Shown piece after piece: positions 8,978 to 33,047 of a DNA stretch of 64,000 bases. Position 1 is the first letter of the stretch. Each line of letters begins with the position of its first letter. Source of the stretch: Escherichia coli (lineage in GTDB: Bacteria > Pseudomonadota > Gammaproteobacteria > Enterobacterales > Enterobacteriaceae); assembly GCF_003334785.1 (NCBI RefSeq), contig NZ_QOWV01000016.1; one strand, 5' to 3'. Below the pieces are notes generated by a model. The model saw only the letters and a program-made list of their open reading frames with translations. It was not told where the DNA came from and searched no databases. Both the position numbers and the translations under genes were made by a program.

Positions 8978-9211
8978 TCGCTAAATAATACAGCAACCTT
9001 TAATAATCTTCTGCTGAATAAAGATTATCTCATATATTAATTTTATGAGATTTTTTTAGGATTATATCAAGGAGAAGAAACAAACTTATTAAGCTAGAAT
9101 AGCCACGGGTGCTTGAGACTGTTTGTCTCAGGTATTCACCGAAAGGCAGACAGAGAAAAGCCCCACCTGACTATAAATCAAAGTTTGTACTGACCCCAAA
9201 AAGTTGGACAG

Positions 9212-10063
9212 TTAAACACGAGGCATATAGGTCTGATTCCGATATTCAATTGGAGTCAGACCTTTTAATTTCAGGCTAATTCTTCTGCTGTTGTAGTATT
9301 CAATATATTCCGTAACAGCATCCTTCAGTTCGCTTATATTACTGAACTCATCAAGATAAAAACACTCCGACTTTAAGGTTCCAAAGAAACACTCCACCAC
9401 AGCATTATCCAGACAATTGCCTTTTCTGGACATGCTTTGTTTAATACCATGTTCTTTAAGGATATTTTGATATCTTCTCATACGATACTGCCATCCCTGG
9501 TCAGAGTGCAGAACAGGATGCTCGTGAGGATTAAGCTTTTTGAATGCCTGATCGAGCATATTCTCAACCATGTTCATCACTGGTCTTTCCGAAAGGCTGT
9601 AAGAAATAACTTCGTTGTTGAAGAGATCTATTACTGGAGACAAATACAGCTTGCGCCCATTGACTGCAAATTCAGTAACATCGGTAACCCACTTCTCGTT
9701 TGGCCGCGTAGCCTTGAAATCTCTTTGGAGAACATTAGGGGCGGTTTGCCCTACCTCTCCTCTGTAAGAGCGGTATCGCTTGACCTTAATCGCTGCTTTA
9801 AGTGAGAGGGTTCCCATCAGGCGCTGAACAGCTTTATGGTTAATCTGTTTCCCTTCTCGATGAAGAGACAGCGTTACCCTACGGTATCCGTATCGGCCTC
9901 TATTCTCGTGATAAATCTCACTAATACGCTTTTTAACGTCCGCATACTTGTCAGGCTTGCTGAGAGCCTTTAGATGATAATAAAACGTACTGCGCGGTAT
10001 CTCCGCAGCCCTGAGAAGCTCATCAAGAGGATAAAACTGCCTTAGCTCGTTGAGTACTTTCAC
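9212..10063 (-). CDS. insK: IS150 transposase OrfB (DDE catalytic domain), 283 aa
   Basis: [32 protein letters not shown]... IS3-family integrase core; GTG start overlapping the orfA stop. Confidence 0.9.
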
Positions 10064-10943: not shown

Positions 10944-10973
10944 TAAAAAAATCCCCGCCAAATGGCAGGGATC
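10944..10973 (-). terminator. Rho-independent terminator of cspA
   Basis: Minus strand reads atccctgccatttggcggggat followed by ttttttt, about 27 nt after the cspA stop. Confidence 0.75.
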
Positions 10974-10999
10974 TTAGATTCTGTGCTTTTAAGCAGAGA

Positions 11000-11212
11000 T
11001 TACAGGCTGGTTACGTTACCAGCTGCCGGGCCTTTAGCGCCGCTTTCGATGGTGAAGGACACTTTCTGACCTTCGTCCAGAGATTTGTAACCATCGTTCT
11101 GGATAGCAGAGAAGTGTACGAACACATCTTTAGAGCCATCGTCAGGAGTGATGAAGCCGAAGCCTTTGTCAGCGTTGAACCATTTTACGATACCAGCCAT
11201 TTTACCGGACAT
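11000..11212 (-). CDS. cspA: Major cold-shock protein CspA (70 aa)
   Basis: [73 protein letters not shown]1/RNP2 motifs present. Confidence 0.97.
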
Positions 11213-11371
11213 AGTGTATTACCTTTAATAATTAAGTGTGCCTTTCGGCGATATGGCGTGCTTTACAGATTTTGAAGCGTTAAAGGAATGTGCACTACGA
11301 GGGGTATCAACGATAACTCTTGAAGGGACTTGCCTTACTACACTGCTTTAATGGTCTGTACGTCAAACCGT
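11213..11371 (-). promoter_or_regulatory. cspA 159-nt 5' UTR (RNA thermosensor, contains the cold box)
   Basis: Reverse complement begins ACGGTTTGACGTACAGACCATTAAAGCAGTG..., which matches my recollection of the cspA mRNA 5' end including the cold-box TGACGTACAGA; length to the ATG is 159 nt. Confidence 0.75.
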
Positions 11372-11430
11372 TGATGTGCATTAAGCCACGCATTGGCGGG
11401 TGATGCAACAATTATTTTTCATATTTATGA
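11372..11430 (-). promoter_or_regulatory. cspA promoter (-35 TTGCAT, -10 CTTAAT, upstream AT-rich UP element)
   Basis: Minus strand: ataaatatgaaaaataaTTGCATcacccgccaatgcgtggCTTAATgcacatcaA(+1). Confidence 0.65.
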
Positions 11431-22568: not shown

Positions 22569-22902
<334 letters not shown>

Positions 22903-22903
22903 C

Positions 22904-22988
22904 GTAGGCCTGATAAGACGCGTCAGCGTCGCATCAGGCAAATGTGCCGGCCATTGTCGGATGCGGCGCGACCGCCTTATTCGACCTA
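22904..22988. repeat. REP elements (pair)
   Basis: gtaggcctgataagacgcgtcagcgtcgcatcaggc and gccggccattgtcggatgcggcgcgaccgccttattcgacctac: canonical E. coli REP palindromes. Confidence 0.8.
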
Positions 22989-25200: not shown

Positions 25201-25371
25201 GCCTGATGCGCTCCGCTTATCAGGCCTACGAAAATTCTGCAATGTATTGAATTTGCACGATTTTGTAGGCCGGATAAGGCGTTAACGCCGCATCCGGCAT
25301 AAACAAAGCGCACTTTGTCAACAATCTGTATACCCGGTGGCGCTGTGCCTCTGCGTGCAGCGCCATCCGGC
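25201..25371. repeat. BIME/REP cluster in the dppA-dppB intergenic region
   Basis: gcctgatgcgctccgcttatcaggcctac ... gtaggccggataaggcgttaacgccgcatccggc ... ggcgctgtgcctctgcgtgcagcgccatccggc. Confidence 0.8.
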
Positions 25372-29426: not shown

Positions 29427-30698
29427 TTACTCAATCAGCTTCAACAGTGGCGACAAGCATAGCAAAATGCCGTACAGCAGAATCAGCCAGGCTTTAAATC
29501 CGCGAAGTTTTTCCAGTTGTGCGACTTTATAGATCAGGAAAAACGGAATGAGGCACGACACAATACCATATAACGGGCTTCCCAACTGAAAGAACACCAG
29601 CACCGATACACGAAACGAAACCCAAATCGTCAACGTAATGACGATAAAAGCGCAGATCGCTAGAGTCAGCACGCGTGAGTTAATTTTCTTGGTATCAATA
29701 ATTCGGCTTAACAGATTGAGAATAATGCCTTTAATGGCCTCGTGGAAACCGAGATAAATGCCAAAGAATGCGGTCAGTACGGCAAAGATATTAAGCACCG
29801 TAGAGGTGATATGAATGATATGCCCAGGGATCACCTGCGCGGCCAGCGCCAGTGCTGAGATATTTTGTTCAAAGGCAGAAACGGCTTCTTCGTGGCTAAT
29901 TGAGAAGGTAAACGAAAAGGCAAAAAACAGGATCACCGCGATGAGCGTGATATAACTAATTCGGTGGGTACGCAGCGCGAGCCGGGTTGCCAGTACTTTA
30001 TCCGCTTCCCGTTTACGATAGGCAATATTCATTGGGTTAAGTACCTGAATAAATACTGCAGAAAAGAAGCAAAATGGAATGGTAAGCAAGACATCGCGGA
30101 AAAAGACGGAGGCTTGCGGGAAGGCGGTTATATTGGCGAAATTCCAGTGCGGGATCATCGCAAAACCGAACACGACAATAATCCCTACTTTGACCACCAC
30201 CATTGGCCCGGAAATCTTAAACAGTAATCGTTCACCACCAGACGCAATCGCCACCAGTACGGCGAAAATAGCGACTTTATAAAGTAGAGATTGTGAAAGA
30301 TCGGCATCGGTTAAACCGAAGGTTTTCAGGTACGAGGCGCTGTCGAAAACCACGGAGAGAGAGTAGATAAAAATCCCGTGGATAATCATCAAAAAGTAGA
30401 TAACCCCGAGGAAAATTCCCCAGTTCTTCCCCAGGTAATGACTGATAATATCGGTGTAGTCATTACAGGAATCGCTTTCAGAAAGGGTTTTTAAATAAAT
30501 GTCCTGCACTACCCAGGTGGCAGGATAAGCAATGATCGCTGCGGTAATAAATACCCAAATTCCCTTCAAGCCAATTTGTACTGGCATCAGCACGGTTCCG
30601 GCACCAATCGCCATGCCTATGCATAATAAAACCCAGCCGAAGTCGTAGCGTGTAAACGGCAATTTCTGATTGTGTTTCGATAGTGTGTTGTGCTGCAT
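29427..30698 (-). CDS. yhjV: HAAAP-family (Ser/Thr/aromatic amino acid-type) transporter YhjV (423 aa)
   Basis: ORF 29427..30761; start taken at [43 protein letters not shown]... Confidence 0.85.
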
Positions 30699-31061
30699 AA
30701 AGTCCTGTCCAGAAAGAAGTCGGCCTCGCAAAAATGAATAAACCCAGTTTCTCTTGCGCAACAGGTGGAGAAGTCGAATACGCAGTATGTAAAAAATGAG
30801 GCAACAGATTCACTGGGGAGGTCGCGAGGAGGCGCAATTCTACAAAATTGCGCATTTCACTACCAGTCTGGAGTCAGCCCGGATATGAACTGCAACTATT
30901 GCAAATAAAGAAATTAAGCTGGAAGGCATCGCGCAATGAGGAAGATTGCCGGGTGCTGACAGTAAAAAGCAATCGTAGAATCAGCGGCAAGCCGGAAAGG
31001 TTCCGGTGAGGCGCAATGTTGCGGGGGCTTTATCCCTGGTGGCATTGGTTGCTGGAGAGAG

Positions 31062-31128
31062 AAAACCCCCGCACGTTGCAGGTATGCACCTGACAACACC
31101 ACGGGGGCTAATCTTGACTCTAGACCAC
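31062..31128 (-). ncRNA. rdlD: Candidate RdlD antisense sRNA (antitoxin of ldrD); boundaries approximate
   Basis: Minus strand upstream of ldrD carries a structured segment ending in the hairpin cccccgtggtg...cgtgcggggg followed by ttttct (terminator-like). Position agrees with the known ldr/rdl arrangement; no promoter mapped. Confidence 0.45.
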
Positions 31129-31173
31129 TCAAGAATAGCCGCGAAACGTTGTCATTACAACACAGGCGGCTAT

Positions 31174-31281
31174 ATGACGTTCGCAGAGCTGGGCATGGCC
31201 TTCTGGCATGATTTAGCGGCTCCGGTCATTGCTGGCATTCTTGCCAGTATGATCGTGAACTGGCTGAACAAGCGGAAGTAA
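31174..31281 (+). CDS. ldrD: Type I toxin LdrD (35 aa)
   Basis: MTFAELGMAFWHDLAAPVIAGILASMIVNWLNKRK: Ldr-family small hydrophobic toxin; the upstream in-frame 56 codons of ORF 31006..31281 are judged non-coding. Confidence 0.85.
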   Translation: MTFAELGMAFWHDLAAPVIAGILASMIVNWLNKRK

Positions 31282-31367
31282 CGTGTCATGCGGGCGTCAG
31301 GCTGCCGTAATGGCAATTTGCGCCCGGACCAGGCCGCAGGGGGGAAACTCTGCGGCCTTTTTCGTTC

Positions 31368-33047
31368 TTACTGCGGGTAAGGCACCCAGTCGCCGCCGTT
31401 CAGGCGAACGTACGGTTTATCCTGGTATTGAATAACTACTGCATTTGAGTTCTCGGAGACCGGTGCTGTTTGTGGCAACCCACTGGTGAGTTTTTTCCAG
31501 TCAACATTGTCTTCGGTGAAAATCTTGCCATCGAGAACGCGAACCACCAGATCGGAGATAGCCAGGAAGCTGCTCGGTTGTTCGATGACAATCGGTGCCC
31601 CCTGATGCGGTGCCTTCATGCCGAAGAATTTCACCCCAACGGGGACGTCGGTGATAGACGGGCTAGGGATATCACGTAGGCCAGATACCTGCATTCTGTC
31701 GCCCTTCAGCGCGCCGCCGTGTTCCGGCACCACGACCACCATCACTTTACGACCCGATTTCTCAAGTTCAGTAAAGAAGGCGTCCAGTTCATCAAAGAAT
31801 TTCTGCGCCCGCGCTTTGTAATCCGCTGTTTTGCTGACCCCCGGATAATGGTTGCCGTCATGCAGTGGAAGAGTGTTGTAGAACGTGGCACTACGGCTGT
31901 TTTTATCTTTTTCGGTAACGTCCAGCCAGCGGTTAAGCACAGCGGTATCGTCATAAACCGGCGAACCATCAAAGCCCAGCAAAATAACCGGCAGATTTGT
32001 TTGATCCATCAATTCGCTCTGCATGCCGCCATTTTCGCGAACTTCTTTCAAAAAACCGCCGAACTGGCCGTTATGTCCCATCATCAGGTGCTGGGTAAAG
32101 CCCAGTTTCGAAAGGTTATCAAACAGATAGCAGTCGTTATTTGCCGGTTGATACAGATTAGTGTGCGAAGTCTGCCCGCAGCTGGCGCGCAGTAAACGGA
32201 TCGCCGCCGGGCCACTGTAGGAGGTGGCGGAGTTAAAGTTCTTGAACTCAATATCGAAATGCGACCACAGTGGATGCGACATCAACCCGGCGGCTTCTAT
32301 ATCCGACCAGGAAAGCGAACAGATGTTAATCACCAGTAGTTCAAATGGCTGAGCATCAGCGGGCAGCGAAGACGGGAAGGTCGATTTACGTTTCGCCTCC
32401 GCGTTATAGAAATTATTCAGCCAGGCGTTAAGGTTCGCCGTTGTTGGCGGTGCAGTTTGTGCGGGCATATCACCCACTACCGGTGCGCCACCCGTCGCCG
32501 CAACGGTTGCCGCTGCGTTACCACCCGTCGTTGTTACAGTGGTCGTCGGTTGTCCGGCTGGCCACAAGGAGAAACTTGGTCCCGCCAGGGTAAGTACGTT
32601 CAGCCATAGCAGTATGGCAACCACAAAAACGGTAATGCGAATCCATTGTGACAGGAATAACCAGGCCACTAATAAAACAAAAATGGCCCCAATCATCTGC
32701 CAGTTAATAAAGCGTGTGACAAGGTCGATTAAATAATCGGTACTGAACCCCGCCACCTGCGAACCCTGGCTCATTATGCTTTCCGGGCCAGGCAACCAGG
32801 TGTCATGCCAGAACAAAGCAAAGCCGATCGGCAGGGCAATCCAGTGGCGCAAGCGATGCAGGCTGTAGCGCGGAAGGGGCATCAGCAGAAACGCGGCAAA
32901 CACCAAATTGAGGAGCGGATGGAAGTTAAGATATCCCGCCCACAACAGGCCGAACTTAACCAGAAAATAGAAGTTCCAGCCGGAAAGGCCGCGCCAGTAT
33001 TGCCAGAGGGAAGAAGGCATGGCGGTATTTTGCGTAAATTGAGTCAT
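31368..33047 (-). CDS. bcsG: Cellulose biosynthesis protein BcsG (559 aa)
   Basis: [39 protein letters not shown]...; N-terminal TM domain plus periplasmic alkaline-phosphatase-like domain. Confidence 0.9.

Follow-up and report, generated by a model that had tools for sequence, protein, structure and literature searches.

How does a small antisense RNA repress a toxin gene when its complementarity stops short of the toxin's start codon, and what is to be made of an open reading frame (ORF) that runs through its target? Both questions are raised by one short region of the window, the whole 64,000-nucleotide stretch of Escherichia coli DNA analysed here (contig NZ_QOWV01000016.1), in which a sequence-only reading had recognised an ldrD/rdlD type I toxin–antitoxin module. 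The locus is already known and, as a module, holds nothing new. It is, with near certainty, LDR-D, the chromosomal ldrD/rdlD type I toxin–antitoxin module of E. coli K-12, and as such both a member and the type locus of the Ldr/Rdl family; its founding description is said to be the 2002 report of Kawano et al. in Mol Microbiol 45:333 (as cited in PMC4147584). The residual value of the analysis lies in a concrete, testable structural model of how RdlD may repress translation of ldrD.

We base the identity of the locus on the concordance of Pfam (Ldr_toxin), PDB (5LBJ), Rfam (rdlD), RefSeq (b4453/b4454) and matches in E. coli genomes, and nothing in these comparisons spoke against it. The two genes are:

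31174..31281, plus strand: ldrD coding sequence, a 35-amino-acid toxin (MTFAELGMAFWHDLAAPVIAGILASMIVNWLNKRK) plus stop; Pfam, PDB, RefSeq b4453 / WP_000141634.1
31060..31125, minus strand: rdlD antisense RNA (antitoxin), 64-66 nt; Rfam RF01813, with RefSeq b4454 at 31062..31125

In NC_000913.3, ldrD (b4453) and the non-coding RNA rdlD (b4454) lie between bcsG and yhjV, and the mapped positions agree exactly. MG1655 3698500-3701500 is the reverse complement of window 29761-32761 with a single mismatch in 3,001 bases, which falls outside the module; the module itself is identical in sequence to MG1655 throughout. When complete E. coli genomes were searched by megablast with 30700-31450, all 5,426 of them gave a match. 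In 5,392 a single place accounted for at least 80% of the query, which was not so in the other 34, and the median of four match places per genome is consistent with the ldrA-D copies. Among the matches listed, the annotations were 'ldrD: type I toxin-antitoxin system toxic polypeptide LdrD' and 'bcsG'.

The toxin peptide starts at the ATG at 31174 and corresponds, in the ORF list, to the last 35 codons of a 91-codon frame that opens with GTG. Pfam PF13940 (Ldr_toxin) covers residues 1-35 of 35 (E 6.9e-27, 93.7 bits) and the peptide is 100% identical to the chain in PDB 5LBJ ('Small toxic polypeptide LdrD'), so that the 35-residue Ldr-type toxin ORF of the sequence-only reading aligns to its family from end to end. 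LdrD also carries the signature described for the Fst/Ldr superfamily (PMC7472228), which can be read from its sequence as PxxxG (P17-V-I-A-G21), W30 and K33-R34-K35. Its tie to Fst itself is at the superfamily level only: the NCBIfam Fst model scored 13.8 bits (E 0.039), below the 26-bit cut-off, and this sub-threshold match was the only one obtained from NCBIfam, which contains no Ldr model. In published work on the identical sequence, cells that overproduce LdrD are killed or arrested and their nucleoids condense within minutes, and co-expression of RdlD relieves this toxicity (PMC4147584, PMC8309996). The helix of an Ldr peptide has been described by nuclear magnetic resonance (PMC8309996), and induced LdrD raises fluoroquinolone persistence (PMC8406316).

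Relatives were collected by a peptide-pattern scan, derived from a three-peptide alignment, over one genome per species. The scan yielded 30 loci, in Escherichia, Citrobacter, the Klebsiella oxytoca group, Kluyvera, Salmonella enterica subsp. arizonae and diarizonae, and Pseudocitrobacter. From these loci, which span six genera, 42 homologous units were analysed for frames and geometry and 41 for alignment and folds, and the counts given below refer to these two sets. Each locus had an rdlD-family match on the opposite strand; in the 42 units the 5' end of this match preceded the ldr ATG by 47-52 nt (49 nt in the window). All but two of the 42 matches exceeded the gathering score, the remaining two, from Klebsiella metagenome-assembled genomes, reaching 49.9 against 50. 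Analysis of the flanks (loci L005-L033) revealed two ancient chromosomal sites for ldr units. One faces the 3' end of bcsG in convergent orientation and is occupied in Escherichia, Salmonella arizonae/diarizonae, Citrobacter and the Klebsiella oxytoca group by one to three tandem copies (one in K-12, two in some other Escherichia); the other lies between chaA and kdsA in Escherichia, Kluyvera and Pseudocitrobacter. A 503-bp 'Bacillus sp.' contig with a coverage of 0.66 (L004, NZ_JABWSY010000055.1) also carries a 97%-identical LdrD together with a 90-bit rdlD match, and is almost certainly Escherichia (E. coli) contamination.

The antitoxin was equally clear and lies far beyond what chance would give. 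In an Rfam scan of the whole 64-kb window at gathering thresholds, RF01813 (rdlD) matched the minus strand of 31060..31125 along model positions 1-66 of 66, with 87.0 bits against a gathering score of 50 (E 5.1e-17). The sequence-only reading had taken an opposite-strand GC hairpin and U-tract for RdlD, had named a covariance-model search as the check, and had estimated the RNA to span 31060..31130; the end-to-end family match bears this out and places the 5' end no more than 5 nt from that estimate. The RNA comprises a 16-nt single-stranded 5' tail (31125->31110), a long G+C-rich hairpin (31109->31064) and a U-rich 3' end, UUUUCU. Its 66-nt fold has a predicted free energy of -29.5 kcal/mol (z = -3.98), with 0 of 200 dinucleotide shuffles as stable, and a terminator scan independently picked out the inner hairpin with its T-run (minus strand 31082..31068). 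Throughout its length RdlD is complementary to the ldrD 5' untranslated region (UTR), from -114 to -49 relative to the ATG at 31174. Among the 41 homologues, pairing persists in 97% of pair cells, and there is only one compensatory change. An RdlD transcript has been seen by Northern blot, and an RdlD/ldrD duplex was captured by p19 in vivo (PMC7373196); an antisense transcript is thus made from this strand.

We also noted that, in the 41 Rdl RNAs, it is the free 5' tail and apical loop that differ from copy to copy, including copies of a single genome (alignment columns 1-16 and 39-42; window 31125-31110 and ~31084-31087). Judged from these alignments, such variation may allow each Rdl to discriminate its own ldr mRNA.

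The module proved to be larger than the 31000-31281 assigned to it by the sequence-only reading. A conservation profile of the 41 units, as well as alignment with K-12 LDR-A/B/C, delimits a conserved block from ~30974 to ~31364, which starts with CGTAGAAT and ends at the T-run after a hairpin at 31331..31358. Left out of the smaller box are the ldrD promoter, the beginning of the 5' UTR, a conserved 3' UTR of 84 nt and the terminator. Within the block, the 5' UTR is conserved more strongly than the coding region. The signals assigned to it are:

30977..30982, plus strand: probable ldrD -10 hexamer, TAGAAT; assigned by conservation, with a weak -35
30989..31365, plus strand: ldrD mRNA of about 377 nt with probable ends (185-nt 5' UTR, 108-nt coding sequence, 84-nt 3' UTR); the 3' end is set by the terminator
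31132..31160, minus strand: probable rdlD promoter read by eye, with -35 TTGTAA (31160->31155), a 17-nt spacer and -10 TATTCT (31137->31132)
31331..31365, plus strand: ldrD intrinsic terminator, an 11-bp G+C-rich stem and T-run (scan hit 31331..31358), 3 nt from the end of the convergent bcsG coding sequence

The ldrD -10 hexamer is the first strongly conserved block of the profile (CGTAGnAT, 90-100% column identity) and is shared with LDR-A/B/C; transcription would then begin at about 30989. The rdlD -10 lies 6 nt from a +1 G at 31125, and this promoter stretch is 90-100% conserved across genera. A sigma-70 consensus scan of 30750-31450 called no promoter. It missed that of rdlD because 8 of 12 consensus positions matched against a threshold of 9 of 12, and that of ldrD because its -35 fell below threshold; both promoters were read by eye, with conservation as their support. 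The terminator stem is paired in 97% of cells.

If the antisense RNA binds upstream of the ribosome-binding site (RBS), what governs the RBS itself? The predicted folds of the ldrD mRNA suggest an answer. The 30989-31365 RNA has a minimum free energy (MFE) of -182.3 kcal/mol (z = -7.26), with 0 of 100 shuffles as stable. Taken together, the fold predictions support two mutually exclusive sets of helices, each of which would hide the ldrD Shine–Dalgarno (SD) sequence, and both of which are kept across the 41 units and six genera. Their elements are:

31010..31015, plus strand: 5' arm of the closing helix, GGCGCA, predicted to pair with UGCGCC at 31319-31324; MFE and RNAalifold consensus
31113..31133, plus strand: predicted target hairpin, CUUG (31113-16), 13-nt loop, CAAG (31130-33); RNAalifold
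31135..31173, plus strand: predicted local SD hairpin, hiding AGGCGG (31164-31169); RNAalifold, with which the local fold of 31110-31190 agrees
31289..31317, plus strand: conserved 3' UTR masking segment; MFE pairs, with pairing kept in 41 units

The closing helix is common to both sets, and all six of its pairs are present in 41/41 units. The target hairpin has undergone compensatory changes, from U-A to C-G in nine units and from G-C to A-U in three; its loop and 5' arm match the complement of the RdlD 5' tail, and it can form in the sense RNA only, since its 3' arm lies upstream of the RdlD start. In the local SD hairpin, the outer stem AUAGCCGC (31135-42) / GCGGCUAU (31166-73) is 97.9% paired and the inner stem GUUGU (31148-52) / ACAAC (31157-61) 99% paired, with C-G in 25 units and U-A in 14; the hairpin contains 14 compensatory cells. 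For the local set overall, 95.4% of cells are paired as against 31-45% in slid controls, and there are 26 double-change cells compared with 9.0 +/- 2.2 in shuffles.

The long-range conformation excludes the local SD hairpin. In it, 31148-58 pairs with 31307-17 (96.2% paired, 8 of 11 pairs varying), the SD stretch 31165-71 with 31300-06 (90.9%) and the start region 31175-85 with 31289-99 (84.8%). These helices are thus 85-96% paired, as opposed to 34-49% for slid controls.

The second question concerns the frame that runs from the RdlD target into ldrD. Two versions of it are at issue:

31006..31281, plus strand: 91-amino-acid GTG frame of the ORF list, in frame with ldrD; not a conserved gene
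31114..31173, plus strand: candidate 'ldrX'-type leader frame with a TTG start, open to the ldrD ATG; in frame here, giving a 55-amino-acid fusion

The GTG, at about -168, is present in 4 of the 42 units, and most units are closed by a stop further upstream. With so rare a start and a frame mostly interrupted upstream, we rejected the 91-codon ORF as a gene. The sequence-only reading had called this frame spurious, and for the ORF starting at GTG-31006 that judgement stands. It does not extend to the last 20 upstream codons, which are the proposed ldrX leader region. A leader ORF, ldrX, has been proposed, although not confirmed, in the long ldrD 5' UTR, overlapping the ldrD initiation region, and RdlD has been suggested to block its translation by analogy with mok in hok/sok (PMC4147584, PMC8167048). 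The TTG at 31114 is situated 60 nt upstream of the ATG, inside the RdlD-complementary stretch and with GGGGG 6 nt upstream of it. The frame from the RdlD target to the ldr ATG is open in 42/42 units. Where the TTG was located by its CTTGA motif (28 units), the frame gives 18 in-frame fusions, 7 ATGA stops and 3 stops at +19; the window ldrD is among the fusions and K-12 LDR-A/B/C are among the ATGA stops. Three further units with TTG (both L006 units and L021) bring the total to 31/42. A literature search on ribosome profiling found no evidence bearing on translation of the leader. On the sequences, the leader-ORF idea is compatible but unproven.

These results bear on how ldrD might be controlled. 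By default, the ldrD RBS would never be free: in the full-length mRNA it would pair with the conserved 3' UTR while the 5'-3' helix closes the molecule, and in the alternative local fold it would lie within the hairpin directly upstream of the ATG. Since the RBS is hidden in both predicted folds, translation of ldrD would need an activating event. This might be the passage of ribosomes on the leader frame, which starts inside the RdlD target and would carry them through the SD hairpin, or else the 5' UTR might be processed or refolded. Repression would most likely take the following path: the single-stranded 5' tail of RdlD would first touch the loop of the 31113-31133 hairpin and then zip up into a 66-bp duplex (-141 kcal/mol, computed), which would both block the activating event and mark the mRNA for RNase III. 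RNase III acts on the RdlD/ldrD duplex in vivo (PMC7373196). We infer from the modelled structures that such a mechanism would resemble the logic of hok/sok applied to an unrelated toxin.

Two other accounts of the locus can be judged on the evidence already given. That the minus-strand hairpin is a fortuitous terminator-like or REP-type element, with no RNA gene behind it, would fit a G+C-rich hairpin followed by a T-run that a generic terminator scan also picks up, and stems almost without covariation. Such an element would hardly give a full-length, high-scoring match to a curated RNA family (RF01813), keep its fixed spacing from ldr in all 42 units, or be annotated as a non-coding RNA in RefSeq, and the transcript detected by Northern blot and double-stranded RNA capture (PMC7373196) already refutes this account, to which we attach a negligible probability. 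Alternatively, the 35-residue call could be truncated, and the real product be the 91-residue frame or an N-extended form from the ATG at 31084 or the TTG at 31114. The frame is indeed open and in phase with ldrD in this copy, and the extension from TTG is in frame in the 18 fusion units. However, the upstream starts are poorly kept (besides the rare GTG at -168, the ATG at -90 is present in 3 of 42 units) and stops intervene upstream in most. K-12 LDR-A/B/C use another frame here, which stops at ATGA, and the units differ as to the frame in which the upstream stretch is read, with at least two represented (SRIAAK..., FKNSRK...), which leaves no conserved peptide. Moreover, the Pfam model spans exactly the 35 residues, and LdrA loses its toxicity when given an N-terminal His-tag (PMC8309996). 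We therefore regard an extended toxin as very improbable.

A far stronger competitor accepts the same locus and the same folds, and differs in leaving ldrX untranslated: RdlD would then mainly create an RNase III substrate, or block a processing or refolding event that frees the SD. We rate its chances as just short of even. It gains from the ~21-nt duplex captured by p19 inside the overlap, and from the slightly increased half-lives of ldrD and rdlD in an rnc mutant together with a shorter ldrD RNA that is seen in rnc cells only (PMC7373196), as well as from the two exclusive conserved folds, which suggest a refolding switch. It also gains from the 11 Klebsiella units, which lack the candidate leader start although compensatory change has kept their RNA hairpins. 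Against it, the reported rnc effects are just slight, the frame from the RdlD target to the ldr ATG is open in every unit despite three different frame relationships to ldr, and in K-12 LDR-A/B/C that frame ends in ATGA, a classic arrangement for coupling. At present we give the leader-coupling version and the structure/RNase III version roughly equal weight.

Several observations count against the mechanism that we favour, in which hidden SD sequences await an activating event that RdlD prevents. In all 11 units of the Klebsiella oxytoca group TCG replaces TTG, with compensation in the hairpin partner, and in three units, L016b and the two of L018, the open frame lacks a canonical start. The leader is fused in frame to ldr in 18 of the 28 motif-located units, so that an N-extended peptide rather than a separate leader would be made. 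The openness of the frame is weak evidence because this stretch is in any case open in two of its three frames, just one being closed by an invariant TAG, and independent indels are few. For the folds, the 5'-3' closing helix is invariant in the 41 units and hence shows no covariation, and the RdlD stems are nearly invariant in the 41 homologues, with covariation almost absent, so that the RdlD fold rests on conservation and thermodynamics rather than on covariation. The shuffle control overstates significance because the sequences are related; greater reliance can be placed on the slid controls and on the compensatory pairs. The ends of the ldrD and RdlD transcripts were placed indirectly, partly from reviews, and a 2021 review called the RdlD mechanism unknown (PMC8309996). 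Finally, deletion of chromosomal ldrD and rdlD left proton-gradient dissipation unchanged, and deletion of rdlD gave only a small rise in DiBAC staining (PMC11997105).

A more general form of the model can be put forward tentatively, and we think it rather unlikely to hold. In this form, ldr mRNAs across Enterobacteriaceae would be two-state switches, alternating between a closed state, in which the 3' UTR segment 31289-31317 masks the SD and start codon and the 5'-3' helix seals the molecule, and a state with the local SD hairpin. The latter would be openable only by a ribosome initiating upstream or by a processing event, and RdlD, bound at the 31113-31133 loop, would prevent the opening. 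If this were true, translation of the leader in fused-frame copies of the ldrD type would give a 55-amino-acid, N-extended and possibly non-toxic LdrD, and the 'spurious' frame would be partly real. The fold data name the specific nucleotides concerned, namely the SD hairpin at 31135-31173, the 3' UTR segment at 31289-31317, the target hairpin at 31113-31133 and the TTG at 31114. Beyond the mechanism, it is worth recording that a reading of the raw sequence recovered a 35-codon gene and a 66-nt RNA of a kind that ORF callers tend to miss.

The surroundings of the module are those of MG1655. Mapping of the RefSeq annotation confirmed the neighbours named in the sequence-only reading, which had set the module between yhjV and the bcs locus:

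29427..30698, minus strand: yhjV, mapped from annotation, flanking
31368..33047, minus strand: bcsG, mapped from annotation, flanking and convergent with ldrD

The mismatch to MG1655 is at window 31872 and is a synonymous change in bcsG Thr392 (ACT here, ACG in MG1655), as expected of ordinary strain variation. With respect to NZ_CP032667.1 alone there is an extra synonymous difference at 29661, in yhjV Leu346 (CTA against CTG). In the E. coli sequence NZ_LR882052.1, an IS1A lies inside the yhjV-ldrD-bcsG stretch (180306-181833) and breaks the match into two pieces.

Other structured RNAs were found elsewhere in the window. The Rfam sok model (RF01794) matched 9107-9246 on the plus strand with 70.1 bits against 59, adjoining a cspA thermoregulator at 10945-11372 on the minus strand; this second type I element is consistent with the K-12 hokA/sokA region. 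A transfer RNA at 22569-22642 (plus strand) is followed directly by an RtT-like element at 22680-22813 (plus strand, 101 bits) and then by a naRNA4/REP-type element at 22907-22986 (minus strand), and an ES036 small RNA match lies at 25222-25264 on the minus strand.

How, then, does LDR-D compare with known systems? Its closest relatives are the tandem ldrA/B/C-rdlA/B/C copies between kdsA and chaA, which share its architecture and spacing. The sequence-only reading had suggested aligning the module with these copies; the alignment extends from ~30972 to ~31365 with a mean column identity of 88%, which makes LDR-D a member of the long direct repeat of ~0.4-0.5 kb common to LDR-A/B/C. The core of the 5' UTR (31000-31060), the terminator and elements of the 3' UTR are nearly identical, and the peptides are 57% identical, including FWHDLAAP, PxxxG and W30. 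In contrast, the RdlD 5' tail, its apical loop and the sequence upstream of the -10 box differ. Owing to a 1-nt difference that precedes the SD, the leader is in phase with ldrD in LDR-D, whereas it ends at the ATGA stop in LDR-A/B/C.

The likeness to hok/sok (mok) is one of regulation. Both systems have a long structured toxin mRNA and an antisense RNA that targets the 5' UTR upstream of the toxin RBS, and they further have in common a predicted 5'-3' fold-back, SD sequestration, a possible overlapping leader and the involvement of RNase III. The features expected of a hok/sok-like mRNA, a 5'-3' fold-back and a sequestered toxin SD, are both present in the ldrD mRNA at the level of predicted structure. 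However, the Hok toxin family is unrelated to Ldr_toxin, and 3'-end processing and leader translation have been demonstrated for hok, whereas ldrD has only a candidate leader. The Rfam sok model RF01794 scored 24.2 bits on 31023..31176 (plus strand) against its gathering score of 59, with a match that ends exactly at the ldr ATG, and reached up to 47 bits on homologous ldr 5' UTRs in Klebsiella (sense strand; L015, L016 and L017), again below 59. With scores of 24-47 bits we rejected membership of the hok/sok family and speak of resemblance only. Such sub-threshold matches of sok to ldr 5' UTRs may reflect distant homology or a convergence of regulatory RNA architecture.

The comparison with Fst runs the other way. 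Fst and Ldr toxins have in common a transmembrane helix, PxxxG and a Trp that precedes the basic C-terminus, and overexpression of either leads to nucleoid condensation (PMC7472228). Their RNAs are organised differently: in Fst/RNAI-RNAII (par of pAD1), the transcripts are convergent with a common terminator, and pairing by the antitoxin takes place at the 5' and 3' ends; the arrangement of ldr/rdl, in contrast, is hok/sok-like (PMC7472228).

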